From contig OZ244207.1 in NCBI GenBank assembly GCA_965216875.1, positions 7,808,001 through 7,872,000 on the forward strand: DNA of 64,000 bases, given 5' to 3'. Under the pieces are notes generated by a model that was not told the origin of the DNA, ran no database searches, and saw only the letters and a list, made by a program, of their open reading frames with translations. Position 1 is the first letter of the stretch, and each line of letters starts with the position of its first letter. Origin of the DNA: Rubripirellula sp. GTDB lineage: Bacteria; Planctomycetota; Planctomycetia; Pirellulales; Pirellulaceae. The translations under genes and the position numbers were made by a program. Below are positions 14,682 to 31,731 of the stretch, one piece after another.

Positions 14682-15746
14682 TCAAAGTCCCAATGCCGCG
14701 ATCGCATAATCGAGACTCTGTCGAACGTTGGATTGTTCGAGTTCGACTTGCTGTTGTGGATCCATTTTCGATGGGTATTGCAACGATTCGGCTTGGTTGT
14801 CGCGAACGGTTCGCAGCGTGCGCGCGAGGTCCTCGGCCGGTAGGTCTGGAAAAGTGCGCCAGTACTTTTCTTCGAGACACGGCACGTGCAACGGATCGCG
14901 GGTGAGAAGTTCGAGCGTGAAGTGGATCTTTGGCTTGGCATTTCGGAGGATCGTGACGATCTGTTTCAGGTCGATAAAACCTTGTCCGAGCGGGATGTCG
15001 CCAAACAGAAAACCATCTTTGGTCAGCTGCAATGCTTGGTCCTTGATGTGGACTGCGTGCGCCCAGGGAGCAAGTTCGCGGGCTGTCATCACCGGATCTT
15101 CGAGCAACGCAAAGTTGTTACCCGTGTCGACGCAGGCTCCGACATACGGGCTATCGATCCGCTCGAGTGCAGCGACGCGTTCGGCGATGCGATGGTCTTT
15201 GTGGTTTTCGGGTGCGAAGGCGACTTTGTGCTTTTCGGCGACCGGCGCGACAAGCTCGAGAGTCCGGCGAGCCTGTTTGTCGTGTTCGCGATATTGTTCA
15301 AGCGACTCGAAGTACTCGTACCTGCGACCCGTAAAGATCGTCGAACGTACCGCAGGGGCGCCGACAGCTGCAGCCGTTTTCATCTGGGCGTCAAAGTGTT
15401 CGACATCGGATGGTTTTTTCGGGCGTCCTACGATCCCTTCGATATACAGACCCAGCGTGTCCGCTTTTTGCCTGAGTGCCTCGGCGCGGGCTTGGTCCAT
15501 CACGCCAAGCGACAATTGAATGCCCCCGGCGCCGACGGCGGCAGCATGGTCAAGGAACTTCTCGGCAGTGAAATGGTCTTTTCCCGTCTGCTTCTTTTTC
15601 AGTCGTTGTTCGATGCGAACGCAATATTGGCACAGACCCATGAGCGATTGCTTGGCTGCAAAACGGGCAGCAGCAGGTTTGGCTAGCGCCGCAGTGGCTG
15701 TGGTCGCAAGGAGAGATTGAAGGGCGGCGCGACGAGTGACTTGCAT
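14682..15746 (-). CDS. Sugar phosphate isomerase/epimerase-like TIM barrel (AP endonuclease 2 family), Tat substrate
   Basis: TRRAALQ Tat motif; metal-ligand motifs PENHKD, CVDTGN, VHIKD, TLELL. Confidence 0.88.
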   Translation of the reverse strand: MQVTRRAALQSLLATTATAALAKPAAARFAAKQSLMGLCQYCVRIEQRLKKKQTGKDHFTAEKFLDHAAAVGAGGIQLSLGVMDQARAEALRQKADTLGLYIEGIVGRPKKPSDVEHFDAQMKTAAAVGAPAVRSTIFTGRRYEYFESLEQYREHDKQARRTLELVAPVAEKHKVAFAPENHKDHRIAERVAALERIDSPYVGACVDTGNNFALLEDPVMTARELAPWAHAVHIKDQALQLTKDGFLFGDIPLGQGFIDLKQIVTILRNAKPKIHFTLELLTRDPLHVPCLEEKYWRTFPDLPAEDLARTLRTVRDNQAESLQYPSKMDPQQQVELEQSNVRQSLDYAIAALGL

Positions 15747-15897
15747 GGCGAGGGAGAGGTTGGAGACTCGCTTGATTCGGGCGTCGTTCTTGACGAAGTG
15801 GCCCGGGAATAGACAACATCTTAACTAAACACCGACGGTCATATCGGGGCTCGCCACGTGGACGCCCAGCGGCCGGAAACCGAGTGGGAGCAACGAT

Positions 15898-16416
15898 TTG
15901 GCTCGAAACATTGAAATCAAGGCGCGATTGTCCGCCCCGGAGCGACAACTTCAGTTGGCCGAAGCGATCGCTGACCAGCCTCCCCGAGTGATCGTGCAGG
16001 AAGACACGTTTTTCAATTGCACCACCGGGCGATTGAAGCTGCGAGTCTTTGAAGATGGCACGGGAGAGCTGATTCAATACCAACGCGACGATCAGGCGGG
16101 ACCGAAGACGTCGAGCTATGTGTTGTCGCCGACGTCAGATCCCAATTCCCTCAAGACGGCCCTCGATCGAGCGTATGGGGTGCGCGCCGTGGTGCGTAAA
16201 ACCCGCAAGCTATTGATGGTGGGCAGGACACGCATTCACCTTGACAGCGTCGAAGGGCTCGGTGATTTCTTAGAGCTCGAAGTCGTCCTCGAACATGGCG
16301 AGAACGAAGCCGAGGGTCGCCGTGAAGCGGATCAGTTGATGGAGCGACTTGAGGTCACGTCTTCGATGCTGATTGAGTCGGCTTATGTTAATTTGTTAGT
16401 GAGCCGAACGCGCTAG
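15898..16416 (+). CDS. CYTH-family / class IV adenylate cyclase-like protein
   Basis: NIEIKAR (ExExK), QEDTFF, RLKLR, VRKTR, RIHLDSVEGLGDFLELEV. Confidence 0.9.
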   Translation: MARNIEIKARLSAPERQLQLAEAIADQPPRVIVQEDTFFNCTTGRLKLRVFEDGTGELIQYQRDDQAGPKTSSYVLSPTSDPNSLKTALDRAYGVRAVVRKTRKLLMVGRTRIHLDSVEGLGDFLELEVVLEHGENEAEGRREADQLMERLEVTSSMLIESAYVNLLVSRTR

Positions 16417-16423
16417 CGTCGGG
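16400..16423. repeat. REP-like element, family C; overlaps the CYTH stop codon
   Basis: tgagccgaacgcgctagcgtcggg; second copy inverted at 5873-5896. Confidence 0.75.
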
Positions 16424-16506
16424 TCTTTCAGGTGTGTGTTGAAATACTGGCGGCGAGCGCCTTACCGCTCACCAGCGAGACGAACGTAGCCTGTGATTCT
16501 TTGATT

Positions 16507-16568
16507 GTCGCCTTTTGCTCCGCAAAAGTTGCGTTTGTTGACGCTACTTTCGCGGAGCGAAAGGCGAC
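16507..16568. repeat. Inverted REP-like pair, family D (gtcgcctt...gctccgc.aaagt / actttcgcggagcgaaaggcgac); possible bidirectional terminator
   Basis: 28-bp imperfect arms at 16507-16534 and 16541-16568 between convergent genes. Confidence 0.8.
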
Positions 16569-16601
16569 GATTGCACTGTGCCGAAGCCAAAGACGTCTGA
16601 T

Positions 16602-17483
16602 TTAGTCGTCGAGCCATCGTTTGCTTAAGCCTTGGTAATCGTCGATTCGACGATCTCGCAGGAATGGCCAATGCGTGCGAACGAGGTCGATGTCATCGAG
16701 CTGGCAATCGGTGGTGAGGATGCCTGGTGTTGTGTGATCGGCTTCGGCGACGACTTCACCTCGTGGGTTGACGATCAAAGAGGCCCCCCAAAATTCAAGG
16801 CGTTGTTCCACACCTACGCGGTTCGGGGCGCCGAGCCAAAGGCCGTTGCTGATTGCGTGGGCCCGGAGCGCTGTACGCCAAGCATCGTGTTGGCCGGCAC
16901 CGTACTCATCCTTTTCTTCGTCGATCCAACCGATTGCCGTCGGGTAAAGAAGGATCTCGGCGCCAGCCAATGCGAACAAGCGCGCTGCTTCGGGGAACCA
17001 TTGGTCCCAGCAAATCCCGATGCCCAGTTTGGCGTACTTGGTTTCGATGGGTGTGAAGCCCAGATCGCCCGGAGCGAAGTAGAACTTCTCGTAGAAGAGT
17101 GGGTCATCAGGAATGTGCATCTTTCGATACGTTCCGGCGACCGAGCCGTCGGCGTCGAGGACAACGGCCGTGTTGTGGTACAGTCCCGGTCCTCGCTTTT
17201 CAAAAATGGGTACGACGATGACAACGCCGTGTTTGGCCGCAAGCTGTGACATTGCCGAAACGGCGGGTCCATCAATCGGCTGAGCAAAATCAAACTGGCA
17301 ATGATCCTCGGCCTGACAGGGATAGTGACAGTGGAAAAGCTCTTGCAGGCAGATCACTTGCGCTCCATCGGCCGCGGCCTGTTCAATCCAATCGGTCGCG
17401 GTCGCGAGGATCTTCGTACCATCACCGGGATCGCCGTCGACGGCTCGCATTTGAACGAGGCTTAAGCGTACATTGCGTGTCAC
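16602..17483 (-). CDS. aguB: Carbon-nitrogen hydrolase, N-carbamoylputrescine amidase-like
   Basis: Nitrilase triad in CLQELF, YRKMHIPDDP and ICWDQWFPEAAR; C-terminal WPFLRDRR. Confidence 0.8.
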   Translation of the reverse strand: MTRNVRLSLVQMRAVDGDPGDGTKILATATDWIEQAAADGAQVICLQELFHCHYPCQAEDHCQFDFAQPIDGPAVSAMSQLAAKHGVVIVVPIFEKRGPGLYHNTAVVLDADGSVAGTYRKMHIPDDPLFYEKFYFAPGDLGFTPIETKYAKLGIGICWDQWFPEAARLFALAGAEILLYPTAIGWIDEEKDEYGAGQHDAWRTALRAHAISNGLWLGAPNRVGVEQRLEFWGASLIVNPRGEVVAEADHTTPGILTTDCQLDDIDLVRTHWPFLRDRRIDDYQGLSKRWLDD

Positions 17484-17529
17484 GGATTCGATCCAGTTGG
17501 TTGATGGTGCTCAGTTCGGAGAATAGCTA

Positions 17530-18213
17530 GTGACACATGGTAAGCGGCGAACCTTGTTTTTTGCAGGGACCGACACCGACGTTGGCAAAACCTATGTCGC
17601 AGCCACGGTGGCTCGCACTTTGGTGGCAGCTGGCCGTCGTGTAGGCGTTTACAAGCCGGTTGCGAGTGGTTGTCGTGTCGAAGATGACTTTCGCGTTGCC
17701 GATGATGCGTTGGCACTTTGGAATGCCGCGGGGCACCCACAAACTCTTGATGAAGTTTGCCCACAGCGTTTTCTCGCGCCGCTCGCGCCGCCGGTGGCCG
17801 CTGCCGCCGAAGGAAGTGTGGTTGATACCGATCGACTCGTCGATGACGCCGGTGCGTGGGATTCCGACTACGATCCCTTGATCGTCGAAGGGGCTGGTGG
17901 CCTGATGAGTCCAATTGCCGAGGGAATGTTGAACATCGACCTCGTGGCAAAGTTTGAGCCTTGTCGGTTGGTCATCGTCGCAGCGGATCGATTGGGCGTG
18001 ATTCATCAAACGATTGCTACGTGCGAAGCGGCAAAGCACCGAGGCGTCACGCCTCATGGGATCGTGCTGAGCCAGCCTGCTCAGGAGTCGGATGAGTCGA
18101 CCAACAGCAACCTCGAACAATTACGCCGCTACTGTGATGTACCGGTCATCGGCCATGTCGCGTTCGGTCAAACCCGAGTCGACGAGTCGATGATTCAGAA
18201 GTTGCTGAACTGA
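17530..18213 (+). CDS. bioD: Dethiobiotin synthase
   Basis: GTDTDVGKT P-loop, YKPVASG, IVEGAGG, LGVIHQT. Confidence 0.95.
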   Translation: MTHGKRRTLFFAGTDTDVGKTYVAATVARTLVAAGRRVGVYKPVASGCRVEDDFRVADDALALWNAAGHPQTLDEVCPQRFLAPLAPPVAAAAEGSVVDTDRLVDDAGAWDSDYDPLIVEGAGGLMSPIAEGMLNIDLVAKFEPCRLVIVAADRLGVIHQTIATCEAAKHRGVTPHGIVLSQPAQESDESTNSNLEQLRRYCDVPVIGHVAFGQTRVDESMIQKLLN

Positions 18214-20378
18214 CGCAACAAACTGTGTCCCGCGAGACGATCCTGGACCCATGCGGTGCCAGAATCGAGCAGTGTTTGTCCCACTGTTTTTTGATTGTCA
18301 TCGGCTGATACACGAACAGATTGTTGATCGTGTAGGTGCGCGGACAATGTCGTCTTCGGTGCGAGGCGAACTTCGTACCGTGGTCGGAGCAATCGCATGG
18401 TATCGCTCTGTTTGCCAGCGCCGGTGGGGTCGACGGTGCGGACGGCGAGTGGGCCCCCGTACTGGGCGCTCAGTGAGTCGGCTGGCAGTCGGTCAGTTGG
18501 CGTGGGAGCAACCTCGGTCACTTCGCCAGTGTGTTGCAGACTTGTGCGGTCGAGCGTTGTTAGCCGCACAGAGTCTCCGATGCGGTCTTGCCATTGGTTT
18601 CGGTCCGTCTGGTCAACCGTGAACACCACCTCGATTTCATCGGGACGAACGATGCGCATCAGCGTTGTGCCTTCGCGGACGTATTGGTCCAGCCAATCCG
18701 AGAGATCATGCTCAGAGGCGATGACACCGTCGCTGGTTGCGACAATGTCCATTTTGTCGAGTTGGTTACGACGAATCTGGATCTGTTGTTTCAAACTATT
18801 GATTTGTGAGCGTTGTGCATCGATGCTGGCCGTCGCCGACTGAGCGACGAGGCGTCGGAAATTCAGGTTGGCCTTCGCAAGTTGGACGACCAAGTCGTTG
18901 TAGTCTTGCTCGAGTTCTCGGTTCTCGATCATTGCAAGTCTTTGGCCCGCTTCGACGTGCTCGCCTGTGCTGACGAAGACTTCGCGAACGAAACCATCGC
19001 TCGCGCATCGCACCGTTTCAGGCTCGTGAAATTGAATGACCCCAGTCTCAACCCCCGAGCCAGGCATTGGAATCGACGCGATCACAAACAAGATCGCTGC
19101 CGTTGTCAACAGTCCCAAAGTTGCACGGATCGGACGAAGTGTTCGAATCGTTTTTGGCAGCCCCACAATGGCTTTCGTCATCAAGGTAACGATGGCTGCA
19201 ACGGCAAGAAGTGAGCCTGCACCTTGGAACAAGTACTCTGCGGCCAGCAGGAGTCCAACAAGCACGACGACGCGCCATGCCAGGATGGCGACTCCGTAGA
19301 TTCGAAAGAATACCCCGCGTAGACCCCGCGGCGGATGACAGCCTTCGCTCGAGGTGCCGAGCACGATGCGCGAGGCCAGGCGACTCCAGTACGACGACGC
19401 GTCGGAATAGAGGTTGGGCAATCTGACCAAGTCAACAAGGATGTGATAGCCATCAAAACGCATTAAAACGTTTGCGTTGAAGATCAACGTGACCGCTGAC
19501 GCCGTGACTGCGATGGTCGCTGCGATGTGCCTGATTTCAGGTGAATGAGACAACCCAAAGACCACAACCGCCATTGCTGCGACGGCAAGTTCGGCCAGCA
19601 TTCCGGCTGCGGCGATCGCGATTCGGTCTCGGCGGCGGTTGAGTTGCCACGATCGGCTAACGTCAACAAACGGAAGCGGAAGCAATAGGATCCAGAGTAT
19701 GCCGAATTCATCGATATCGACGCCCATGCGTCGTGCGACGACCGCGTGAGCAGCTTCATGGATCACCCTGAGCACGATTGCCGCGAGACCAATTTGCCAC
19801 CACAGACCATTGTGAACGATTGGAGCAAACGCAGCATTCCACCCCGAAAGGTCACCAATCACTTGCGTGATTGCGTAGACGATCAAGGTGAGGGTCGCGA
19901 CCAGTGCGTATCGATTCGTCCAGGGCGCCGTGTAGCGGGTGAGTGTGTCGATTAGACGCGTGGGCGTTTTGAGCGAAGTCTTGACGCAAAGCGGCGAGAT
20001 GCGGACTCGTCCTTTCGTTCCTGCGTGTTTTCCGATTCGACGCACGTCGCGACTGACGTCCGCCTGCGTGGCCAGACCAGTCTTTTCAAGCCAGGCGGCG
20101 ACCGCTTCGGCTTCGCTTTGATCGAGCGCGATCTCGGGTCGCCCCGTGCGCTTAGCCAGTGCTTGCGTTGCTTCCGACGCGGTTTGGAGGTCCGTGTTTC
20201 CGTCCAGCATGGAGGCGAACGCGTATTCGGCGAACCCGATTTCGTAGTGCATGCCCGTTGCGGGATTGGTGACCGAATAGCTCGGTCCGCCAGCGAATTG
20301 GTGTGGAGTCCAAACCAAATCGGGACGCATTTGAAGGCAGGTTTCAGCTGCTGTGTCGTGCTTGGCCAATTGCGACAT
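18195..20378 (-). CDS. M50-like membrane metallopeptidase fused to a HlyD-type membrane-fusion domain, with a small N-terminal PqqD-like domain
   Basis: Multi-TM core with IHEAAH and FNANVLMRFDGYHIL; C-terminal lipoyl-like VRCASDGFVREVFVSTGEHVEAGQRLA, coiled coil and second lipoyl half. Confidence 0.85.
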   Translation of the reverse strand: MSQLAKHDTAAETCLQMRPDLVWTPHQFAGGPSYSVTNPATGMHYEIGFAEYAFASMLDGNTDLQTASEATQALAKRTGRPEIALDQSEAEAVAAWLEKTGLATQADVSRDVRRIGKHAGTKGRVRISPLCVKTSLKTPTRLIDTLTRYTAPWTNRYALVATLTLIVYAITQVIGDLSGWNAAFAPIVHNGLWWQIGLAAIVLRVIHEAAHAVVARRMGVDIDEFGILWILLLPLPFVDVSRSWQLNRRRDRIAIAAAGMLAELAVAAMAVVVFGLSHSPEIRHIAATIAVTASAVTLIFNANVLMRFDGYHILVDLVRLPNLYSDASSYWSRLASRIVLGTSSEGCHPPRGLRGVFFRIYGVAILAWRVVVLVGLLLAAEYLFQGAGSLLAVAAIVTLMTKAIVGLPKTIRTLRPIRATLGLLTTAAILFVIASIPMPGSGVETGVIQFHEPETVRCASDGFVREVFVSTGEHVEAGQRLAMIENRELEQDYNDLVVQLAKANLNFRRLVAQSATASIDAQRSQINSLKQQIQIRRNQLDKMDIVATSDGVIASEHDLSDWLDQYVREGTTLMRIVRPDEIEVVFTVDQTDRNQWQDRIGDSVRLTTLDRTSLQHTGEVTEVAPTPTDRLPADSLSAQYGGPLAVRTVDPTGAGKQSDTMRLLRPRYEVRLAPKTTLSAHLHDQQSVRVSADDNQKTVGQTLLDSGTAWVQDRLAGHSLLRQFSNF

Positions 20379-20380
20379 CC

Positions 20381-22195
20381 CTACATCCAAAACTTTGAAG
20401 CTTGCTGCAGGCAACGTTTGAGGACGACATTCCAAAGTGGACGTTTTTCGCCAATCACTTTGGCGACACCACTAGCGCCTGGGCGGAGGATTCCGCCTTC
20501 GTTGTCGATCGAAGCGCGAGCGATGAACACGTTTTGCCCACCACGGATCTTGGCGCTCGATTGAATCGAATCGATGGTTGCGGTCATTGATTCGCTACCG
20601 AAGGCGTCAAAGGCAACTTGCACGGTCATGCCTTCGGCGATTTCAGCGAGTTCGTCTTCCGGAATCGCTATTTCGAGCCAGAGCTTGTCGAGGTTGGCAA
20701 CTTCGGCGATCAATTGGCCCGTTGTGACCGGTGCGCCTTGAACCCCATCGAGTTCGCCGGCAATGATCACACCCTCGATGGGCGAAGTGACGGCAAGGTT
20801 GTTTTGGCGATGTTGCACCAACTCGATTTCCTGGTCGATGCGAGCCAGTTCCAATTCAGCTAGTTGTTGATCGGCGACTTGGTCACGGGCGCGATGGACA
20901 TCACGCTGTTTGAGAGCCCGGTCTTGGTCGGCTCGAAGCGCAGCCAGCTGGATTTGCAACTCCCGATCGTCCATCGTCGCGATCAAACTGTCGTAACGAA
21001 CCAGGTCGCCGATGCGGGCATGCGTGTTGCTGAGCGTGCCAGCGTGAGGTGCAACGATGAAACCGCGGTTTTGGGGAATGAGTGTCGCTGACGCAGGGAC
21101 CCGATAGTGGACCGGAAGGAATCCGATCGCAATCAGAACGGCGGAGGCGAGCGCAAAGGTTCGGTGAGCGTTGAGAAGTGATCCAAGGTTGCCCCAGAAC
21201 TTGCTAAATCCGGATTGGTGGTTTGCACGCCAAAGCGAAAGGCTCTTGCCGACAAGATCGCCAATCTGTGAGAGCTGTTCGCGCTGGAACATCTCGCGAT
21301 CCGAACCGACGCAAGAGATCACCGCCTGCAATACGCCATGGTCGTCAAACACAGGAATGCTGCCGACGACGCAATCGGATTGACGCGGCCGATCACTGAT
21401 CTGCTCGGCAAGTCCGCGGTGGGCAAGGGTAGCGGCCTTGTTTTCGTCCAGGTCGGGCCAACGGGTGACTTCGCGGCGCAGGAGCGTTTCGGCGAAAACG
21501 TTTTGCCACTTGGATTCGGCGATAGGATCGCCCGAACCGCCGATTGCCGCTACCGAGATTCGCTGGTCGGTCTCGGAACGCACAAAGCCAATTGCGGTTT
21601 GGTAGGCACCGGTATGAATGGCAATCAGATCGACGACGTGTTCGGCAAGTTGTCGTTGGTTGTCACTCGCAAAGATCAAATGTTGTAGTTCGGCGAGCCA
21701 CAAATGATCAGCTGCCCTGTTTGTTCGGGAGCCTGATTCGCGTTGAGTTTGCCACAGCCTTCCGTACGAAGCCGCAAGTTGCAGTGAAAGTACAAACGGT
21801 TCGACCGCGGCTTGACCGAGTTGCAACGCAATGGTCACGACCGCCGTCTCCCCTTCGATCACGCCGATCGGTGTCGCGATCAACGTGGGCAATTCAAGAC
21901 GCGATAGCTCGGTACGTTGGTTCGCCAAAGCCGCAAGGGCAAGCTGAGTGACACGCGCCGCACCAGCCGCGTCAAAGTGCTCCTTTGACCCATTGACCAA
22001 CGTCGCTGTGACCTGGTTGTGGTCGCTAAATCGTTGCACAACGCAACAATCGGCGTTGGTCATTTGCGCGGCGAGTTGTCCCAGTTGCCCCAGAAAGTCG
22101 TTTGCATCGAGGGTCGGATCGTTGTTCGATGCAAGTGATTCAAGATGCTTGGGAAGGGACGCCAAGTCGAGGGTCACTGCGGAAGGTTCCTTCAT
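20381..22195 (-). CDS. GAF-like domain(s) fused to a HlyD-type membrane-fusion protein
   Basis: About 330-aa cytoplasmic region with GAF-like patterns (LIATPIG, VVGSIPV), one TM, then IVAPHAGTL, coiled coil, VTSPIEGVI, LRPGASG. Confidence 0.8.
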   Translation of the reverse strand: MKEPSAVTLDLASLPKHLESLASNNDPTLDANDFLGQLGQLAAQMTNADCCVVQRFSDHNQVTATLVNGSKEHFDAAGAARVTQLALAALANQRTELSRLELPTLIATPIGVIEGETAVVTIALQLGQAAVEPFVLSLQLAASYGRLWQTQRESGSRTNRAADHLWLAELQHLIFASDNQRQLAEHVVDLIAIHTGAYQTAIGFVRSETDQRISVAAIGGSGDPIAESKWQNVFAETLLRREVTRWPDLDENKAATLAHRGLAEQISDRPRQSDCVVGSIPVFDDHGVLQAVISCVGSDREMFQREQLSQIGDLVGKSLSLWRANHQSGFSKFWGNLGSLLNAHRTFALASAVLIAIGFLPVHYRVPASATLIPQNRGFIVAPHAGTLSNTHARIGDLVRYDSLIATMDDRELQIQLAALRADQDRALKQRDVHRARDQVADQQLAELELARIDQEIELVQHRQNNLAVTSPIEGVIIAGELDGVQGAPVTTGQLIAEVANLDKLWLEIAIPEDELAEIAEGMTVQVAFDAFGSESMTATIDSIQSSAKIRGGQNVFIARASIDNEGGILRPGASGVAKVIGEKRPLWNVVLKRCLQQASKFWM

Positions 22196-22503
22196 ACCGA
22201 GCTGCCCTCGCTAGTGCTGGTTGCATCGAACGCGAGTGGGGGCAAACTCGCACGCCCTTGATTGGGTTCGGCTGGCCGTGACCGCAGAAGTTGTCCGAGC
22301 AGGCTGTGCAACCGTTCGGCTGCTGACCAAGGCAGAGCAAGTCGCGTGTGAATAGGCAATTGGTCCGCCGAACCCTCTGATCCAGCGGCCACCACGGCGG
22401 CTCCGCAATCGAGGATCACTTCCTCTTCGCCCGCTGCAGCGATGAACTGGGACGTGTAGAGCAGGTTATGGTTGCTGTAGACGAATTCAACGGGTTGATT
22501 CAT
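22192..22503 (-). CDS. Small cytoplasmic protein, DUF3467-like
   Basis: 103 aa; YTSQF...EEVILDCG...RLALPWSAAERLHSLL resembles the DUF3467 pattern; ATGA overlap with the next gene. Confidence 0.65.
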   Translation of the reverse strand: MNQPVEFVYSNHNLLYTSQFIAAAGEEEVILDCGAAVVAAGSEGSADQLPIHTRLALPWSAAERLHSLLGQLLRSRPAEPNQGRASLPPLAFDATSTSEGSSV

Positions 22504-22558
22504 GGCTCGGTCAGTCGTTAGTGCGGATTGCTTCAAAGTCTGGTGTGTTGGAAACGGG

Positions 22559-23464
22559 CTAGCGTGACGGGTTGATTTCGGGCCAATTCCAAGTCGCGAG
22601 CAGTCCGCTACGGAGTTTGGACTCGTGATTATTGATTCGAATGTCGACACGAACGGTTCCCGATTCGCTGTCCGTGATGGGCGAAACGAAATCGATTTTG
22701 CCGTCGACGACACGTTCAAGTTCGCTGAGTTGCAACCTGACTTGTTGCTCTGGTTGCAACTGGAATGCGAGTTTGGTCGGAACGTTCAATCGCAATCGCA
22801 GTTGTTTGAGAATCGCGATCTTTGCAATCACCGGATCCGAAGCCGCCGCGTATTCCCCTTTGCGACGTTTCATTTCGATCACCACACCATCAATCGGTGA
22901 GCGAACGACGTGACTCTCGATTTGGGCTTCGATCCGAGCAACCTCGGCGGCCGCAATATCGATTTTCTCTTGAGCCGCGAGCAATGCGGACTCCGCTTCT
23001 CGCACGACAAGTTCCGCTTGGTCGACCTCGGTTTGGCTGGCGTGCGACTCATCGAACAAAGCGGTCAGGTCCTCATGCCGTTTGGCGGCATGGTTCAGGC
23101 GTGCACGAGCCGATTCGGCTTCACCCATTGCACTTGCACGCTGCTTGGCCACTTCAAGGCTGGCTCGCAGAACAGCATCGTCAAGTCGCGCGATGGCGTC
23201 GCCCGCGGACACTGTCGCACCATCCTTTGCGATGACGTCTGCAAGCCGCCCCGGTTGGGCGACGGCCACTTCGATCGATTCCCACGGTTGCAAGAACCCA
23301 ACCGACGCTCTCGGGGACACCGAATAGGTCGCGGATCTTGCCGCGGTCAGTCTCGGCGTCTTCGCGTCAACGGTTGCGGATCCTGCGATCGCGACCACGG
23401 CGATGAAGGCGTGTCGAACGCAAGAATGCTTGAAGCTCGGTGTGTGTTTGCCCATCCTATTCAT
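22559..23464 (-). CDS. RND/HlyD family periplasmic adaptor (membrane-fusion protein)
   Basis: Signal/TM, VAVAQPGRLADV, coiled coil, VRSPIDGVV, FVSPITDSESGTVRV, LRSGL. Confidence 0.92.
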   Translation of the reverse strand: MNRMGKHTPSFKHSCVRHAFIAVVAIAGSATVDAKTPRLTAARSATYSVSPRASVGFLQPWESIEVAVAQPGRLADVIAKDGATVSAGDAIARLDDAVLRASLEVAKQRASAMGEAESARARLNHAAKRHEDLTALFDESHASQTEVDQAELVVREAESALLAAQEKIDIAAAEVARIEAQIESHVVRSPIDGVVIEMKRRKGEYAAASDPVIAKIAILKQLRLRLNVPTKLAFQLQPEQQVRLQLSELERVVDGKIDFVSPITDSESGTVRVDIRINNHESKLRSGLLATWNWPEINPSR

Positions 23465-25452
23465 CTCGCTTGACCTGCTGATAAGTCGGGGCGTGTTGAA
23501 ACGTTGGGGCGTGAGAATGCTTTGTGGGGCAAGTCTTCGGCAACATGAACGTCTTCGATCATGCCTTGGAAGTTGGATTGTCCAAAGTAGCCTTGGCCAA
23601 CTTGAGGCGTGCTACTGACGCCCGTGGGTCTGCGTTGGTCTGATGGGCTTGCTGGGCCACTCGATTGGACGGGAGCGGGTACGGGAAGCTGTTCCACTTC
23701 AACCGGATCAAAGTATTGGATCGAGGTCGGCGTCGTGTCCGTTTTGTCCAGAATGGTTGTTGGCAAACAGTTTTCGCATCCGCGACCCACTTCGACGTGT
23801 TCGGCTTCGAGCAGCGTTCCGTCAGCACGTTTCAGGTTGATGAGGGACAAGCCGTAGGTGGTTTCCGCTTCGAGGAATGCAAACTCGGTCGCGGCCAAAC
23901 GTTCTTGAGCGCGAAGGAGGTCTTCCAAGTAGAGATTGACCGAGCGTTCTTCACCGCCCAAACGACGCCAGCGGCCTTCGATGTAATCAACTTCTTCACC
24001 TGCTGCACGCATCGATTGATACTTGGCGAGCATGTCTTGGTAACCGGTCTCGACTTCACGGATCGCGACCTTAACTTCAAGCATCAACGTTTCGACCGTC
24101 GCCTTGAACTGGTTTTGAAGCTGTCGCAGTTCGAGTTGACGACGGCGCAAACGGGCTTTGGCGGCCCGACGGCCGATCGGAACCTCGTAAGTCAATGCGG
24201 CGCTATAGCTTGGTTCACCCACGCTGAATTGATCGACCCAAGCACCACCAATGTCGCTGTTGCCACGAAGGCCTGAGACGTACGCATCGAGCACGACATC
24301 CAGTTGCGGCAACAACTCATTGCGGCTCATGCCAAGTCGGACCGAAGCGGCACGAATCTGACGCAGGGATTGGTTCAATTCTGGACGACGGTCGAGTGCG
24401 GTCGAAAGCGTCGTGACCGGGTCGGTGGCAATGTGGTCGCGCGTTGGCCGATCAACGGGGACGATTTCCAAACCTTCGGTCAACGCGAGTTCCGGATCGT
24501 TGATCAGTGCATTCAAACGATCTTGTGAGTTGCGGATCGCCATTTGTGCTCGCACCAACTCACTGCGACGTTGGAAAACCGCTGCTTCGGTACGAATCAA
24601 CTGACTTTGAACAGTGTCGATCGACGCACGCGCTCGAAGTTCTGATTCGATCTTTTCAGCACGCTCGAGAAGTCGTTGCTTCTGCAAGAGTGAACCGCGT
24701 TCGAGGTAGAGCGCCCAATAAGCGCGAGCGATCTCGAGAAGGTGACTTTGCAGCTGGCGACTGAATTCGTCGTTCGACACAGACGCATCGATATCAGCGA
24801 GGACAATCAGGCTCTTGTTGTAGACTTCGCCAGCGCCACGCAGCAAGGGTTGTGTGTAGTTGACGTTCCAGCGCGAAGTGCCCTGGTTGTTGGGTTGGAA
24901 GAAATTGCTGTTGTTGTTTTGGTGCGCAATCCGCTGGCTCGTTTCGAACGTTCCACCTTTTGTGTTGCGCCGCGAAACACCTGCCGAGCTGCTCCAAAGG
25001 TGGTCGCGATAGCGCGGAGACCCACCGGTGGTCAAAATGTTGCCGACCGGATCGCTGATGTCGTCCCAGCGAGTGTCGAGGAACAGTTTCCAGTCGAAGG
25101 CCGCTTGGGCTTCATCAACCGCTGTCTCACGGATCAGTGGCAAGTCGCCAAACACCTTGACCTGCGCCGAGTGCTGGAGCGCTCGGTAAAGTAGTTCGTC
25201 AAGGGTTGCTTGTATGACCGGTCCACGTTCGACAATCGAGCCTTGCATGTCGTCTTGCCACCATGGTAAGTACGATGCAGGCAGTTTTTGTTGGTGTGGA
25301 GCGGTTGAGTGTTCGAGGTTGTGTGCGGCCAGCGGTATGCGTTGACGGTACTGGTCACGCAACCCGCCTTGGTATTGTTGGGCGTTCGCCTTTCCCAACA
25401 ATAGCAGTGGCCAGATGACCAAGGTCATCAAGGTTGTGGCGCGAATAAACAA
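23461..25452 (-). CDS. TolC family outer-membrane efflux protein
   Basis: Signal peptide, YTQPLLRGAG, IARAYWALY, RRPEL, NELLPQLD, YEVPIG; TTG start after an AGGAAGGA ribosome-binding site. Confidence 0.9.
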   Translation of the reverse strand: MFIRATTLMTLVIWPLLLLGKANAQQYQGGLRDQYRQRIPLAAHNLEHSTAPHQQKLPASYLPWWQDDMQGSIVERGPVIQATLDELLYRALQHSAQVKVFGDLPLIRETAVDEAQAAFDWKLFLDTRWDDISDPVGNILTTGGSPRYRDHLWSSSAGVSRRNTKGGTFETSQRIAHQNNNSNFFQPNNQGTSRWNVNYTQPLLRGAGEVYNKSLIVLADIDASVSNDEFSRQLQSHLLEIARAYWALYLERGSLLQKQRLLERAEKIESELRARASIDTVQSQLIRTEAAVFQRRSELVRAQMAIRNSQDRLNALINDPELALTEGLEIVPVDRPTRDHIATDPVTTLSTALDRRPELNQSLRQIRAASVRLGMSRNELLPQLDVVLDAYVSGLRGNSDIGGAWVDQFSVGEPSYSAALTYEVPIGRRAAKARLRRRQLELRQLQNQFKATVETLMLEVKVAIREVETGYQDMLAKYQSMRAAGEEVDYIEGRWRRLGGEERSVNLYLEDLLRAQERLAATEFAFLEAETTYGLSLINLKRADGTLLEAEHVEVGRGCENCLPTTILDKTDTTPTSIQYFDPVEVEQLPVPAPVQSSGPASPSDQRRPTGVSSTPQVGQGYFGQSNFQGMIEDVHVAEDLPHKAFSRPNVSTRPDLSAGQAR

Positions 25453-25458
25453 GGGACA

Positions 25459-25661
25459 GTATCCTTCCTAATACCCTTTGCCAAGCACATCGAATCTGCT
25501 CAACGTTTCCGTTTGTGTGGGGATGCGCCAACATCCATCGGCGCTGTTGCACAGAAATCTGCGCAACCCCAATCGATCGGTATCGTTAAGCCTGCATGTG
25601 AAACGGGATTCGAGTCCCCATGCCGGCAAATGTGGGTACAGACCATCCTCCTTGATGGTCT
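25459..25661 (-). promoter_or_regulatory. Structured 5' leader with three GGA-loop hairpins (putative CsrA/RsmA-type sites)
   Basis: Minus-strand hairpins agaccatc-AAGGAG-gatggtct (25640-25661), gcgccga-TGGATG-ttggcgc (25525-25544) and gtatt-AGGAAG-gatac (25459-25474, containing the Shine-Dalgarno). Confidence 0.55.
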
Positions 25662-26043
25662 CAAGGTTCGACCCGTCAATGAAGACGTGTGGGGAAGCCG
25701 ATCCTCATCAAAGTTTATCGACACCCCCGAAATTCGATTTTGCGAAGACAACCGCCGTTTGGCAAATGTGCCAGCGGTGGGGTGCGAGGAACGGTAGAAC
25801 TGGAACATCCCAAACCCCCAACTGCTAAAGTTGAGCATGTGGAGTGGTTCGGTCGTGGTGACTGTTCCGGTTAGCGCTCGGCCTATCGCAGTTTTGACGA
25901 GACCAACGAATGTGTCGCCAACTGCCCCGCACCGATCTTCACACCGACCAGGGGGGGCGATTATCGGGTGTTATGGGCAACTTGGTCGTGCCCGCCGACC
26001 CAACCTGGGGCCGAGAAAACCCTGATGAAATTCGGTTGACTTG

Positions 26044-26188
26044 GTAGTGGACGAGGCCACGAGTCCCGTCAGTCTCGTAGTGGACGAGGCCACGAGTCCC
26101 TTTCGTTCCGTCCTCACTCCGATGAGAAGCTTTAACGATTAGAGGACGCGTGGCTTGCACGAATGAAAAGGGACTCGATGTCCACAAC
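26044..26188. repeat. REP-like cluster, family E (gtagtggacgaggccacgagtccc x2 direct, plus a degenerate inverted copy)
   Basis: Exact 24-bp copies at 26044-26067 and 26077-26100; gggactcgatgtccacaac at 26170-26188. Confidence 0.85.
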
Positions 26189-26200
26189 CGCTATGCCGTT

Positions 26201-27001
26201 CTAGTCGGCCATTTCCCAAATGTAAGCGGCGTGCACGATATCGGAGATTTCGAGCGAGTAATGCGTCCGACGTTCGACGAACTTCGATTCTTTCTTCGTT
26301 TCGGTGTAGCTGCGTTTGCCGCGGACCAGACCGAGCACGAGCGGTAAGCCGTCGGCCGAACGCTCGGTGGCATGGATCACTGGGCCACCACTGTCGCCAC
26401 CCCAGGCAGTGATATCGGCCATGAAGAAGGTGTGCGAATCAATGGGGGCAAGCGGAAAGCTCGCGATGCTGCCACTGCGCACGATCGGAAATCCAGCGTT
26501 GTTTGATTCGAGTCGCTCGGGATAGACCGCGGCGCGAATGCTGTCGCCCACGAAGACTCGTTCGAGATCTTTTTCCCTTGCAAAGCAGGTCACCGGAATC
26601 GGCGAGACATTGATGTCCTTTGGCAGCGGGAAGATCGCGATGTCATGCTTGGGGTGTTTCTTCCAGAGGCGGCGACCGTCGTCATCGCGAATTCGAAGCG
26701 GAACATCGACCCGTTGGTATTGTTTGTCCTCACGCAATTTACGCGTGACAAGGATCATCTTGGTGCCCTTCATATGATCAAGCACGTGATGGGCGGTCAC
26801 GATTGCGATCTTGTCACTTCCGTCTTCGTGTTTGCCGAAGGAGACAGCCAAGCCACCGGCAGTCGATGCATCGTTAAAAAGTTTGTGCGTTGCCAAGACA
26901 AGTCGTTGGGTCGCTTCATCGGCCCGAAGGATTTTAGGCGTCGCGAAGCTGAAACCGAACACAGTGACGATCGCGAGGACGACAGAGTGGACTTTCATCA
27001 T
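26201..27001 (-). CDS. Secreted trypsin-like serine protease
   Basis: Signal peptide; triad motifs IVTAHHV, HDIA, GGDSGGPV. Confidence 0.88.
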   Translation of the reverse strand: MMKVHSVVLAIVTVFGFSFATPKILRADEATQRLVLATHKLFNDASTAGGLAVSFGKHEDGSDKIAIVTAHHVLDHMKGTKMILVTRKLREDKQYQRVDVPLRIRDDDGRRLWKKHPKHDIAIFPLPKDINVSPIPVTCFAREKDLERVFVGDSIRAAVYPERLESNNAGFPIVRSGSIASFPLAPIDSHTFFMADITAWGGDSGGPVIHATERSADGLPLVLGLVRGKRSYTETKKESKFVERRTHYSLEISDIVHAAYIWEMAD

Positions 27002-27040
27002 GCTGAAGAAACTCTTGGGAAGTGAATCGTAGCGGGCTTG

Positions 27041-27397
27041 CTAGGAAGGGTTTGGAATGTACCGGTTCATCAGTTCGGCGTAGTCTTCTCGTACCGGACT
27101 GAAGACATCAAGCACCAACGCGGGACCGCCAATCGCCGTCGCTTTGTGCGGGACGTTTGGCGGAATGATAAACATCGAACGTGGTTGGACGGTCCGAGTT
27201 TCGTCACCGATTGTCAGCTCTAGGCATCCTTCAAGCAACATGCCAGCCTGCTCATGCGGATGATCGTGAAGGGGGATGGTGGCGCCTTCGTCCATCTCGA
27301 GGTAGGAGAGCATGAGGTTTTCGCCATAAGGTGTTCGCAACCGGCACCCTGGAACGACTTCTTGGGGGGCAATGTCTTTGGCGTCGATGAAAGGCAT
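27041..27397 (-). CDS. Cupin domain protein
   Basis: PLHDHPHEQ and IPPNVPH cupin motifs; DVFSPVREDY. Confidence 0.92.
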   Translation of the reverse strand: MPFIDAKDIAPQEVVPGCRLRTPYGENLMLSYLEMDEGATIPLHDHPHEQAGMLLEGCLELTIGDETRTVQPRSMFIIPPNVPHKATAIGGPALVLDVFSPVREDYAELMNRYIPNPS

Positions 27398-27527
27398 TTC
27401 GATCACATCCCTTGCTGATTCGCGAGCGGTCGTCGCTGTTTTTGGCCCTGTTGGTTTTGGAGCACTTCAAAAACTATCATAGGGACTCGGTTACTCAGGT
27501 CCATGTCTTTGTCGGAATCGCTTTCGA

Positions 27528-27989
27528 ATGGTTGGTCGAATAGGCATCCGTTTGTTGATCGTCGTGCCGACGCTGTTTCTCGGCGGATGTTCGGATGGTC
27601 CCGAAACGTATCCGGTGCGCGGTTTGGTGCAGTTCACCGATGGCAAATTGCTACAGCAAGGCGTTGTCGAATTCTCGACGGGATCCGACTTCGATTCGGT
27701 GACGGCGCGCGGACGTATTGCGCCCGATGGATCCTTTACGCTGGGGACCTACGACGTTGATGATGGCGCCGTTCCAGGCTCGCATCGCGTCGTGGTGATA
27801 TCGGACCATGTGATCGGCAATGGAACGGAACGACCTGGATTGATTGAACAGTCGCGTGTACATCCCAAACACAGGCTGTACCGGACTTCGGAACTCGAGT
27901 TCACCGTCGAGGCGAAGGAGAACGAGTTCATCGTCCAAGTCGAATATGCGCCCCTCGAAGAGGAAGACGAACCAGGAGAGGATGGGTGA
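27528..27989 (+). CDS. Planctomycete lipoprotein, carboxypeptidase-regulatory-like domain
   Basis: Lipobox LGGC, YPVRGLV, DGSFTLGTY...DGAVPG, HPKH. Confidence 0.8.
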   Translation: MVGRIGIRLLIVVPTLFLGGCSDGPETYPVRGLVQFTDGKLLQQGVVEFSTGSDFDSVTARGRIAPDGSFTLGTYDVDDGAVPGSHRVVVISDHVIGNGTERPGLIEQSRVHPKHRLYRTSELEFTVEAKENEFIVQVEYAPLEEEDEPGEDG

Positions 27990-28003
27990 CGAGGGTAGCC
28001 ACC

Positions 28004-28037
28004 CGTTCGTAGTACCGAGCTTTAGCCGGAATCTTCT
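28004..28037. repeat. REP-like element, family F (cgttcgtagtaccgagctttagccggaatcttct)
   Basis: Exact 34-bp copy at 35753-35786. Confidence 0.85.
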
Positions 28038-28095
28038 CGCGTTTCGTCCAAAGACGGGACACCTGCAAACTGTCATGCGGAGCATGACCTACGGT

Positions 28096-30324
28096 CTAGC
28101 CTCGTCGCGAGAGCACGATGATGGGGCAATTGGTGCGGCGGACGAGTTCACGGGTGAACGACCCGAATAACTTTTCTTTGGGTCCGAGTCGTTGAATTCC
28201 AAGGATCAGCAGGCCTGACTCTTGGGCTTGTTCGACGACGGCGTCGACGGCATCGTCGCTTCTCAATAGCAGCCGTTCGCATTGTCCCTTGATGTTGTCG
28301 CGTGCGAGTTTGGCAAGGTCGCGTTTGGCGCGATTGAATTCTTTGCTCGATGTGTTTTCTGGAACCGCACGCATGAAGGTGACGCGCCGCTTTTCTTCCC
28401 GCGAGAGGCTTCCGAGGAGTCGCGTCAAAAGTCGGTCGTGGCCGCCGCGTCCGGCGACCGGGACAAGGATCTTTTTGGCGTCAGAGAGTTTCCATTGTTC
28501 GGGCGCTCGCAGCACAACCACATCGGTGTCGAGCTCGCTCAATAGGCTTTCAAGGGGACTGCTCTGGTTCTCTTCGTCAATCGAACTCATGCCCAGAAGG
28601 ACCGACTCACATCGATGCAATTGGGCGACCCGTGCGATCTCTTGCATCGGTTCGGGGCCAACGGTGGTGAGCGTCTCGACACGCGTGCCCACGCTTGCCG
28701 ATGCATTAAGCAGTTCTCGCAAGACTTCATGTGAGCGTTCGATCGGTTTGGCATCCTCGGCAGGGCTCCAGCCGCTGGGCGCAACGACAACGCTTTGAAT
28801 AAGGACTCGGCCATAGGAGGCCGGAACGAGAACGTCGGCCAAAGCGATCATCGCTTGCGCGTTGTGAGGGTTTGCGATTGGAACCAGCACGAGGGGCGCG
28901 CGGCCTCGCAGAGCCAAGAGTTCAGGATCTGCGGCGACGTCGCGTACGTCGACGAGTCTCGCTTGGCGGGCAAAGAGGGAAAGGAAGAGCAAACCGCCAA
29001 CGCTCAACCAGATCACGGCAATCGTTCCAGCGGTCGGAACGGCAAAGCCTTGAAAGACGGCCAACGCGATGCAACTGAAGCCACCGACGATTGGTACCAA
29101 AGGAAACAGTGGCACGCGAAAGGGAGGCGGTACGCGCGTGCTGCGCAATCGCACAAGGACCGACAACCAATGGGCGATCGCGAACGTCATGAGAAAGATC
29201 AGACTCGACGCGGCACCTGCGGCGGCCACGTCGGGCAAAAGCAACGACAGCACAATCACCAGGATGCCTGTGACGGCGATCGCGCAAGTGGGCGATCGTC
29301 GATTGGCACTTAGTTTGGCAAGGATCGGCGGTAACGTGTTGTCTTCGGCCATCGCGCGTGCGATGTGGGAAGCAGCGAAGAGGTTGGCTTGAAGGGCTGT
29401 GAACATCGAAAGCACAGCGGCAACGATCACGAGCCAGTAGCCCGAAGTGCCCAGAAAGTTTTTGGCCGCGATCGCAACAATCTCTTCTGGATGACGCTGC
29501 GCCGCCGCGAGTACCGATTCTCCTGGAGGAACGCCGACGGTCGTGATCACAAACAGGAGTGGCAAGTAGATTCCGAGTGCGATGGCGAGCGAAAAGATCA
29601 TCGCTCGCGGGATTGTGCGTTTCGCATCTCGAACTTCACCGCCCACCGCGGCGATCAAGTCGAATCCCTGCAACGCAATGAAGCTGTAACCCATCGCCTG
29701 AATCAGCCCCAACGCTCCGCCGGAAAAGAAGGGTCGCAAAGCGACATGAGTCTCGGCGACCGGTTGGCGACTGACGGCCCAAAATCCGCCAATGATCAGG
29801 ATTCCAAAGACGGCAACCTTGGCAACGTTGGCCCACTGACCGCCGCCAGCCGAGGTGAGCATCATCATCAGGGACAAGCCGATGGTCGCGCCCACGGCGA
29901 CGACGGGGATCGCCCAACCTGTTCCCATCCACTCGGGAACCTGCCGGCCAAATGCGAGACAAATCTCGCTCGCCATGACCAATAGGAAGTGTGCGAATCC
30001 GAGCGCATACAAAACGGCGGCGACGACCGAGGCGAACCAGACGACCCAGCCCACGGTGAAAGCAGCCTCGACCGAGAGGACTTTACGGCTGAAGGTATAG
30101 GTCCCGCCCGACTCGGGAAACCGCGACGCCATTTCGGCAAAACTCAAAGCGGTCAGCAGCGCGATAACGCCGTTTAGGGCAAAGGCGAGCATTGCTGACG
30201 GACCGGTCGTCGAGAAGGCAACGCCGGCGAGAGCGAGGATGCCTCCGCCAACGATCGCTCCAACGCCAACTCCGGTCGCGCCGAATAGCCCCAATTTCTT
30301 CGCTGATTGATCACTCGCATCCAT
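28096..30324 (-). CDS. APC-family amino acid permease with two C-terminal USP-like domains
   Basis: About 12 TM, GAIVGGGI, FPESGGTY, FIALQGFD; C-terminal VLVPIANP and ILVPVAG...LFGSF...CPIIVL. Confidence 0.88.
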   Translation of the reverse strand: MDASDQSAKKLGLFGATGVGVGAIVGGGILALAGVAFSTTGPSAMLAFALNGVIALLTALSFAEMASRFPESGGTYTFSRKVLSVEAAFTVGWVVWFASVVAAVLYALGFAHFLLVMASEICLAFGRQVPEWMGTGWAIPVVAVGATIGLSLMMMLTSAGGGQWANVAKVAVFGILIIGGFWAVSRQPVAETHVALRPFFSGGALGLIQAMGYSFIALQGFDLIAAVGGEVRDAKRTIPRAMIFSLAIALGIYLPLLFVITTVGVPPGESVLAAAQRHPEEIVAIAAKNFLGTSGYWLVIVAAVLSMFTALQANLFAASHIARAMAEDNTLPPILAKLSANRRSPTCAIAVTGILVIVLSLLLPDVAAAGAASSLIFLMTFAIAHWLSVLVRLRSTRVPPPFRVPLFPLVPIVGGFSCIALAVFQGFAVPTAGTIAVIWLSVGGLLFLSLFARQARLVDVRDVAADPELLALRGRAPLVLVPIANPHNAQAMIALADVLVPASYGRVLIQSVVVAPSGWSPAEDAKPIERSHEVLRELLNASASVGTRVETLTTVGPEPMQEIARVAQLHRCESVLLGMSSIDEENQSSPLESLLSELDTDVVVLRAPEQWKLSDAKKILVPVAGRGGHDRLLTRLLGSLSREEKRRVTFMRAVPENTSSKEFNRAKRDLAKLARDNIKGQCERLLLRSDDAVDAVVEQAQESGLLILGIQRLGPKEKLFGSFTRELVRRTNCPIIVLSRRG

Positions 30325-30367
30325 GACCCACTTTTTTCCATGAATGGGCCCAATCCGTCAATCGCGG

Positions 30368-31669
30368 TTAAACCTCTGGTTGCCAACCGTCCGCATATTC
30401 ACGGGACCAAAATCTTTCCGCTTCGTCGTTTCCGATGACGTGTCCGTCGTCCGGATTGGTCTTCAACACGCTGTTGGTTCGATAAGCGATGTTGCCCAGG
30501 TGACACATCAGCGTGCTTCGATGAGCCTTTTCGATATCGGCGTTGGGCCGGCGTCCTGTGCGAAGTGCGTCGAGAAAGTCGGCGAAGTGGTCTGCATCAC
30601 CGCCGGGGCCTGACTCGACCGCCTTTTCTTTGTTGCGAATGTCGTACAGCGCGTAGCCGCTGCCGTTGATCACGACCGAGCCTTCGGTCCCATGAACGCT
30701 GATGCCGAACCCGGAGTCATGCGGGCCGAGCGGCGACCAACTGAGTCCTTCCCAAGTGATCGTTTTGTTACCAGGAAAGTCGTAGGTGACCATCATGGTG
30801 TCGGGCGTTTCCTGGTCGTCGTCGTGGCGATACTTGCCGCCACCCGCGGTGATACGCGTGGGATAAGTGACGTCCATCGCCCAACGTGCGACATCGAGTC
30901 CGTGGACGCCATTATTGCCAAGTTCGCCGTTGCCCCAGTGCCAATGCCAATGCCAGTTGTAGTGCACGACATTGTCTTTGAACGGAGTCCTCGGTGCCGG
31001 GCCCTGCCAGAGTTCCCAATCGAGCCAGCCGGGGATTTCCGTGTTCTTGCCCTTGCCAATCGACCCACGGCGGTTGTTGTACCAAGTCCTTGCGTAGAGC
31101 GTCTGACCGATTTCGCCGGCATGAATCCGCTCGACCGCTTCGACGATCTTTGGCCAGGTGCGACGTTGCGTTCCCATCTGTACGACGCGGTTGTTTTTGC
31201 GGGCCGCCTGGACAGCCCATTCGCCTTCGGCTGGCGTGTGACTACAAGGTTTCTCGACGTACACATGTTTTCCCGCGGTGCAGGCCAGGATCGTTGCCGG
31301 CGCATGCCAGTGGTTGGGGGCTGCAACGATCAAGGCGTCGACATCCTTGTCATCGAGAATCCGACGGAAATCGACAACGCTCTTGGGACGCTTGCCTTGA
31401 TCTTTTTCCACCGCATCAGTTACTCGACCGAGAGCACGCGAGTCGACGTCACAGACGTAGCCGATCTCGGTTTGTGATGCTCGCGTCATGCCTCGTGCGA
31501 TCGCGGCCCCGCGTCCGTTGACGCCCATCACACCGAGCACCACTTTTTCATTCGGCGATGTAGATGCGTTGGGAGTTTCCTGCGAAGAAACGTGAGGTTG
31601 AAACGCTGCCGTTGCCGCCAATGCGGCACTCCCTTGAAGGAACAATCGTCGGTCGCTGCGAAGATTCAT
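30368..31669 (-). CDS. Gfo/Idh/MocA family oxidoreductase, Tat substrate
   Basis: DRRLFLQ Tat motif, APNHWH, YVEKPC, QMGTQRR, GNNGVHGLD. Confidence 0.93.
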   Translation of the reverse strand: MNLRSDRRLFLQGSAALAATAAFQPHVSSQETPNASTSPNEKVVLGVMGVNGRGAAIARGMTRASQTEIGYVCDVDSRALGRVTDAVEKDQGKRPKSVVDFRRILDDKDVDALIVAAPNHWHAPATILACTAGKHVYVEKPCSHTPAEGEWAVQAARKNNRVVQMGTQRRTWPKIVEAVERIHAGEIGQTLYARTWYNNRRGSIGKGKNTEIPGWLDWELWQGPAPRTPFKDNVVHYNWHWHWHWGNGELGNNGVHGLDVARWAMDVTYPTRITAGGGKYRHDDDQETPDTMMVTYDFPGNKTITWEGLSWSPLGPHDSGFGISVHGTEGSVVINGSGYALYDIRNKEKAVESGPGGDADHFADFLDALRTGRRPNADIEKAHRSTLMCHLGNIAYRTNSVLKTNPDDGHVIGNDEAERFWSREYADGWQPEV

Positions 31670-31731
31670 GGTGACGTGCTCGTGCGGAAGGTTGGATGCG
31701 AAAAACAAATCGTCGGAGGAAGGTTCGCGAA

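Follow-up and report, generated by a model that had tools for sequence, protein, structure and literature searches.

Can a set of envelope proteins that includes a TolC channel, several periplasmic adaptors and an intramembrane protease export a protein when no energising pump is encoded beside it? The question is raised by a five-gene operon in a 64,000-nucleotide stretch of Rubripirellula sp. (contig OZ244207.1, positions 7,808,001 to 7,872,000; hereafter the window). Its five co-oriented minus-strand open reading frames (ORFs; 18195-25452) encode a TolC-family channel, a stand-alone membrane fusion protein (MFP), a small DUF3467-like protein, a GAF-like–MFP fusion and a fusion of an M50 protease with an MFP (M50-MFP). 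The original prediction, made from the letters alone, presented it as an ATPase-less, type-I-like machine. We find instead that the operon is genuine and intact, an accessory copy of a module already known from computational work, and not a new ATPase-free machine. The five genes probably provide the envelope-spanning part of a SecA-type, ABC-free exporter that would be powered by a short SecA acting in trans and would serve an unlinked giant protein (G000:C1:918447-938066). Positions given alone are those of the whole window; G000:C1 marks coordinates in the source genome, L0xx fetched loci and P00xx fetched proteins.

An intact operon without an energising subunit

The tight packing reported for the five genes was confirmed in the sequence, which has two ATGA overlaps, one 2-nt gap and one 55-nt gap between them. 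All five frames are open and their codon use is ordinary. Profile scans of the five proteins agree with the count of one TolC and three MFP domains and returned no match to ABC, RND, MFS or SecA families in Pfam or NCBIfam; the RND or MFS inner-membrane pump of a tripartite efflux system was accordingly not found among them. No Walker A or ABC signature pattern occurs in the five proteins, and no SecA remnant was detected in window positions 15000-32000 (best tblastn E 0.19). With profile, motif and tblastn scans all empty, a hidden ABC or RND domain or a SecA remnant in the operon was rejected. Moreover, one public-read contig, possibly from the source sample, spans 16542-26064 with zero differences, and the direct TolC-MFP junction is therefore not an assembly slip.

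A known module and its candidate motors

The statement in the original prediction that TolC, MFP and M50 loci had been noted in PVC bacteria matches the literature. In the parts covered here, Kamneva, Poudel and Ward (2015; PMC4452313) describe M50-HlyD, GAF-HlyD and HlyD proteins that accompany a truncated SecA_DEAD protein, in some cases together with TolC, with no ABC transporter and no experiment. The paper already proposes that SecA acts as the motor and that the M50 protein forms the pore, and notes that the partners are sometimes encoded apart. The window operon has the same three HlyD-domain proteins and TolC, and likewise no ABC transporter: an M50-HlyD fusion with transmembrane helices, a GAF-HlyD fusion (GAF by profile), a stand-alone HlyD protein and the optional outer-membrane efflux protein (OEP). 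The remaining member, a secondary SecA_DEAD protein without wing and scaffold, is represented by two copies outside the locus. In comparison with the module in the text covered, the window copy differs in having a DUF3467-like gene and no SecA in the operon, and that text names neither a cargo, nor an RRE domain, nor a leader. SecA-less loci may be listed in its supplements.

Three SecA_DEAD genes are present in the source genome, encoding the canonical protein and two short forms of 673 and 761 aa. Both short forms keep the nucleotide-binding motifs, and neither gave a wing or scaffold domain match. The 673-aa form (G000 7470840) lies inside a TolC-SecA-MFP-GAF-M50 operon at 7.47 Mb, one of six M50-MFP loci in the genome, and the 761-aa form is unlinked. 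Paralogous operons lie at G000 7468744 and 7939307. M50-MFP and a short second SecA were found together in 41 of 41 genomes searched from the same order. The genome search proposed in the original prediction, for a second SecA_DEAD protein and giant proteins, thus returned both short SecA genes and the giant considered below. Its suggestion that energiser and cargo are supplied in trans gains support from these genes; its alternative, that no energiser is needed, sits poorly with the SecA carried by the closest operons and with the short SecA kept in every genome searched.

Related loci are of two kinds, a core type (SecA, GAF-MFP, MFP, M50-MFP and DUF3467) and an accessory type that is often linked to TolC; the window operon belongs to the latter. 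The core-type short SecA of the source genome (G000:C1:7640010-7642295) is unlinked from the core operon (6043716-6049819), and the two are adjacent in several relatives. Two further divergent M50-MFP loci were seen. The one at G000:C1:128873-136264 includes a divergent TolC and has a leader protein of 1,850 aa close by; that at G000:C1:2822136-2826475 consists of GAF-MFP and M50-MFP only.

Likely loss of SecA from an ancestral locus

Among the 20 top-scoring loci fetched from relatives, SecA is present in nine and absent from 11 over the 8-20 kb covered. The small gene was not found in 40 relatives, and was found in 3 of 400 other genomes of the class after ordinary DUF3467 matches had been removed. 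Eight other loci combine it with the operon context, and six of these hold SecA (L043-L046, L056 and L074); in L054 and L055, SecA is absent from the stretch and a giant gene lies alongside. The closest operons with the genes in this order read giant gene-TolC-SecA-MFP-small-GAF-MFP-M50-MFP, and SecA sits exactly between TolC and MFP in all five loci of that gene order that span this junction, the place where the window has an ATGA overlap. (L047, in which only the small gene and a partial match to TolC were seen, L057-L059, with ordinary DUF3467 genes and no operon, L075 and L077, which are too short, and L076, which scores the same as L044, were dropped; L062-L067 were picked for a SecA adjoining the core operon and do not give a frequency.)

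The window TolC is 51-58% identical to the TolCs of the closest operons and groups with those of L043-L046 at support 0.996, and GAF-MFP does so at support 0.92. The TolC, MFP, small protein and GAF-MFP of L043-L046 each find their best match in the source genome within the window. Gene order and similarity suggest that an ancestral giant-TolC-SecA-MFP-small-GAF-M50 locus likely lost its SecA and became split from its cargo gene.

A giant protein as candidate cargo

In L043-L046, a giant SdrD-B/DUF11-repeat gene lies upstream of the operon. The best match of this giant in the source genome is the LEPR-XLL/DUF4347 protein at 918447-938066, with 38-41% identity across as many as 1,541 aa, and the last 150 aa of the L043-L046 giants match that protein alone (E 1e-75 to 1e-79). 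In the reverse direction, the N-terminal 500 aa of the source-genome giant have an operon-linked giant as their best match in the three genomes whose contig permits the check. Its C-terminal tail occurs in 10 of 401 genomes of the class, including all four with the small gene, three of which built the tail profile. The giant lies about 1.35 Mb from the operon, by the shorter way round if the chromosome is circular. Repeats in the flanks of both giant and operon are unbridged by public contigs; a misassembly swap between the two is unlikely, as the flanks are without similarity (best E 0.27).

The leader of the giant, found by pattern and alignment and not directly by NF012209 or PF07595, is basic and, by reading, without a hydrophobic core; no RTX nonamer was found in the giant. 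Of the 2,436 source-genome ORFs of at least 400 aa, 66 carry the leader pattern within their first 160 aa, as do 14 of the 17 ORFs of at least 3,000 aa, against a background of 4 in 3,221 at positions 160-320, in an ORF set that includes some shadow frames. Pfam scans of the genome gave 38 Planc_extracel and 7 DUF4347 matches. Across 41 genomes, accessory-type loci and DUF4347 occur together in 13, the locus only in 4, DUF4347 only in 2 and neither in 22 (Fisher p 1e-5, with groups set by score cut and neighbourhood, and with kin that are not independent).

Other features of the giants were recorded. The conserved 150-aa C-terminal domain (G000:C1:918450-918900; L070:18451-18900, minus strand) comprises a weakly Ig-like part and then an unnamed tail, with no Pfam match above cut-off. 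The DUF4347 giants at G000:C1:3567946-3577065, 3418348-3421236 and 7924795-7938984 share another type of C-terminal domain, which contains a hydrophobic stretch and differs from the tail of the giant at 918447; the tail type may track the exporter subtype or act as an anchor. Histidine kinases and FixJ-like regulators recur beside operons or giants (L013:1-1293, L045:4264-4893, L046:2586-4906 and G000:C1:909208-914834). The FixL/FixJ-like pair downstream of the giant was tried as a second synteny marker and dropped, being the best match in one of three queries.

An RRE-fused protease as predicted leader reader

The M50-MFP consists of a PqqD-like RRE domain at about residues 12-105, an M50 domain with about eight hydrophobic segments and an MFP domain. 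The zinc-site residues H207, E208, H211 and D309 (HExxH and the downstream Asp) are intact, and all invariant columns of the family are kept in the window copy, as are 56 of the 65 columns conserved at 85% or more. In the AlphaFold2 (AF2) model (pLDDT 90), a structure search resolves the RRE, the site-2 protease and the MFP. The RRE has the three strands and three helices of solved RREs and matches the leader-bound lasso-peptide RREs 5v1u (Z 10.4, rmsd 3.4, 81 aligned) and 6jx3 (Z 10.2, rmsd 3.4, 83 aligned); 8 of 27 family members match PF05402 (PqqD), and the window protein itself does not. The M50 domain matches SpoIVFB and RseP at Z 10 (8vjl, Z 10.6, rmsd 4.1, 133 aligned; 7w6z, Z 10.1, rmsd 3.0, 130 aligned), and the MFP domain matches EmrA and MexA (Z 15). 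Residues 53-433 match the daptide protease family NF041824 at E 2e-36, with 126 bits against a cut-off of 300.

A complex of M50-MFP residues 1-437 with the first 50 aa of the giant was modelled at a score of 0.67, compared with 0.01 for the best of three controls; with our own alignments, the mark let through roughly 116 of 157 solved complexes as against 2 of 215 mismatched pairs. The runs agree in at least 76% of their contacts, and the partner has pLDDT of at least 50. The model has RRE strand 43-49 paired with residues 12-17 of the leader, which up to residue 26 lies in an interface that includes all four zinc-site residues. The model supports binding of the leader and would place the motif for cleavage. 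A processing role for the M50 protein, already suggested in the original prediction, is thereby strengthened by the modelled complex and by the RRE, which that reading had not noticed.

These observations suggest how the exporter might operate. As modelled, the front half of the cargo leader would be bound by the cytoplasmic RRE as an additional strand, with the remaining half entering the M50 zinc site, where the leader would be cut. A short SecA would then push the unfolded chain, N-terminus first, and the inner-membrane passage may be formed or gated by transmembrane helices from both fusion proteins. The three MFP domains would make a mixed ring docking on TolC, and the DUF3467-like protein is presumably a cytoplasmic accessory. 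We propose more tentatively, at slightly less than an even chance, that this represents a distinct, modular form of secretion in these planctomycetes, in which RRE-M50-MFP is leader receptor, signal peptidase and inner-membrane gate, each of the paralogous conduits serves its own giant LEPR-XLL/Planc_extracel class with common SecA-like motors in trans, and the window operon is dedicated to the 6,500-aa adhesin-like protein.

Weighing the alternatives

Several results weigh against pairing the operon with this giant and with a SecA in trans. In L043-L046, the M50-MFP is closer to the paralogue at 7.47 Mb (locus A) than to that of the window in four of four cases, and the window M50-MFP is not grouped with theirs in the tree; because the predicted leader reader pairs elsewhere, support for the cargo pairing comes from the remaining four genes. 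L043 and L044 are, moreover, close kin (~80%). Five of the ten tail-bearing genomes (besides the source genome) have no TolC, MFP, M50-MFP or SecA gene in the stretches fetched. With 66 leader-bearing ORFs and six M50-MFP loci, another paralogue could serve the giant. The nearest short SecA in the genome is only 39-45% identical to the lost type. The passing score of the complex may come from likeness to solved RRE-leader and site-2-protease-substrate structures, and the model is silent on cargo specificity because its controls were unrelated proteins and not other leaders.

The operon might therefore be an orphaned leftover that lost SecA and its cargo neighbour and is now redundant or non-functional, the giant being exported by other paralogues. 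We consider this unlikely. It would account for the SecA missing relative to the closest operons, for the five paralogous loci in the genome and for the absence of matches to this operon type in the two other genomes of the genus. Its M50-MFP (26 of 26 comparisons) and GAF-MFP (24 of 27) are also less like outgroups than their L043-L046 counterparts, and a first relative-rate test had suggested decay of the copy. That suggestion was rejected, for the M50-MFP only, when four closer relatives were added: the window protein belongs to a clade with P0010-P0013 (45-48% identity; not found among 400 family and 400 order genomes), and the divergence is common to the clade, with similar tips (0.64 in the window copy versus 0.55-0.70 in sisters). 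Five open, tightly packed frames, intact catalytic residues and a clean ATGA junction with no SecA remnant also argue against a leftover, and SecA-less loci are common in relatives, as the 11 of 20 above indicate.

M50 domains are known as proteases and not as pores, and no result of this analysis demonstrates a pore. Both points favour a two-step route, in which the RRE-M50 part only trims or senses the leader, SecYEG or an unlinked ABC exporter takes the cargo across the inner membrane, and the MFPs and TolC provide the outer step only; four ABC_membrane genes in the source genome are compatible with such a partner. We regard this route, too, as improbable. The leader, as noted, is basic and without a hydrophobic core, C39 matches in the genome are limited to short stand-alone frames, and no conserved ABC neighbour was seen at fetched loci with or without SecA (by BLAST to module genes and by eye). 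The short SecAs, furthermore, have no match to the wing and scaffold domains, which the covered part of PMC4452313 links to SecYEG contact. Least probable of all, in our view, is a conduit that works without an ATPase, for which the drive might come, for example, from proton motive force or from the cargo folding or binding ions once outside the cell. Such a conduit would fit the SecA-less accessory loci of relatives and four genomes (G010, G020, G022 and G024) that hold accessory loci and only two SecA matches. Slight further weight comes from the contigs of P0010-P0013, which were untraced among the best 120 of 336 SecA matches, four other M50 matches having been traced. However, the short SecA kept in 41 of 41 genomes means that a common motor explains the SecA-less loci, and no energising domain of another kind was found. 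An exporter of the giant powered by SecA in trans remains our preferred explanation.

Relation to known systems

Type I secretion systems (HlyB-HlyD-TolC, C39-ABC and giant-adhesin exporters; PMC8277102, in the part covered) likewise use a TolC and MFP conduit, and the protease-inner-membrane fusion of the operon parallels the leader-removing protease fusion of C39-ABC exporters. The operon encodes the MFP and TolC but no dedicated ABC transporter, and differs further in its three different MFP domains, its M50 rather than C39 protease, an N-terminal tag and a cargo without the RTX nonamer. In the portions covered of their descriptions, the RRE-fused site-2 proteases MpaP and DapP (bioRxiv 10.1101/2023.03.08.531785) and EpeP (PMC10885120) share an N-terminal RRE on a leader-removing intramembrane M50 protease. 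By contrast, the window protease is fused to an MFP, probably acts on a giant protein rather than a short peptide and has no modifying enzymes nearby; its score is below the cut-off for daptide proteases, and no cluster for RiPPs (peptides made on the ribosome and modified after translation) was found among the neighbouring ORFs examined.

The N-terminal motif of the candidate cargo is of the Planc_extracel (PF07595) or LEPR-XLL (NF012209) type. A planctomycete N-terminal motif presumed to be an export signal was reportedly described by Studholme in 2004. Planc_extracel is presented as a presumed novel export signal on the longest planctomycete proteins in PMC8567305, which in the part covered does not name the machine that reads it. 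A full-text search, with most subscription journals outside its coverage, returned no account that links the module to the leader motif or tests the module, and the link is not described in the covered parts of PMC3482391, 10.1101/2023.11.21.568195, 10.64898/2026.06.07.730766 and 10.64898/2026.03.19.712371. The gene set was published in 2015, and the window copy is one among many; the mechanism linking module and leader motif appears unpublished within the literature searched. What the locus adds is a specific unlinked pair of operon and cargo with a residue-level model: one operon, one candidate cargo and two candidate motors. If correct, it would represent a secretion route in which a leader reader of the RiPP type works together with a site-2 protease, a SecA-type motor and a TolC conduit.

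The small protein and the GAF-like region

Two labels given to the operon's proteins hold at the level of profiles. The small protein aligns with DUF3467 proteins (hhalign 96.5%, E 8e-10), and 10 of 16 members of its family match PF11950 at E up to 1 (best 6e-6); the window protein has no direct PF11950 match at the Pfam cut-off, and the kinship is by profile alone. The N-terminal 340 aa of the GAF-like-MFP likewise align with tandem-GAF paralogues that bear Pfam GAF matches (hhalign 96.6%), with no direct Pfam GAF match of its own. An AF2 model of the small protein (mean pLDDT 68) has three predicted strands and one helix, and Foldseek returned nothing at E <= 0.001. The model (22192-22503) resembles COMM domains (best Z 6.2; bacterial COMMD-like 9q6a, Z 5.3) in the range expected by chance. 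Its COMM-domain and PUR/PC4-like matches, at Z 4-6, lie in the range of common arrangements, and no function was drawn from them. A tandem DUF3467 protein is encoded at G000:C1:2459994-2460707; L059 and L132 also have one, next to single DUF3467 genes and apart from any export operon.

Gene layout and boundaries

Coordinates are collected in Table 1. By eye, the TolC has a Sec-type signal peptide. Hydropathy scans gave no transmembrane segment in the stand-alone MFP and a single helix at about residues 346-364 of the GAF-like-MFP.

Table 1. Features of the operon, its boundaries and the candidate cargo
Feature	Position	Strand	Remarks
TolC-family outer-membrane channel (OEP)	23461..25452	-	663 aa from TTG; PF02321, two repeats, E 2e-23
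Stand-alone periplasmic adaptor MFP	22559..23464	-	301 aa; TIGR01730 (RND_mfp) 129 bits, above cut-off
Small DUF3467-like protein	22192..22503	-	103 aa, ATG at 22503
GAF-like-MFP	20381..22195	-	604 aa; HlyD_D23 and HlyD_3; tandem GAF-like region, then transmembrane helix, then MFP
M50-MFP	18195..20378	-	727 aa, ATG at 20378; PF02163 above cut-off and HlyD domains
bioD, convergent boundary gene (outside system)	17530..18213	+	TIGR00347 above cut-off
Genome-wide interspersed repeat in two tandem copies, upstream boundary marker (outside system)	26044..26109	.	
Giant LEPR-XLL/DUF4347 protein, candidate cargo	G000:C1:918447-938066		about 6,450-6,540 aa

The convergent bioD, which had been taken to bound a complete operon, overlaps the last 19 nt of the M50-MFP gene. 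On the upstream side, where a non-coding leader of about 590 bp had been described, 748 nt separate TolC from a co-oriented trypsin-like gene, and they contain the tandem repeat and a 112-aa ORF with no Pfam match. From this layout, it is plausible that the operon ends at these boundaries. A promoter and terminator scan of the operon gave nothing above chance level, and from three putative RNA read runs nothing mapped to the 18-kb stretch, in which neighbouring genes were equally empty. The repeat at 26044-26109 includes a 24-mer with 45 exact copies in the genome, and short interspersed repeat families with many genomic copies also occur near 16400-16570 and 28000-28100.

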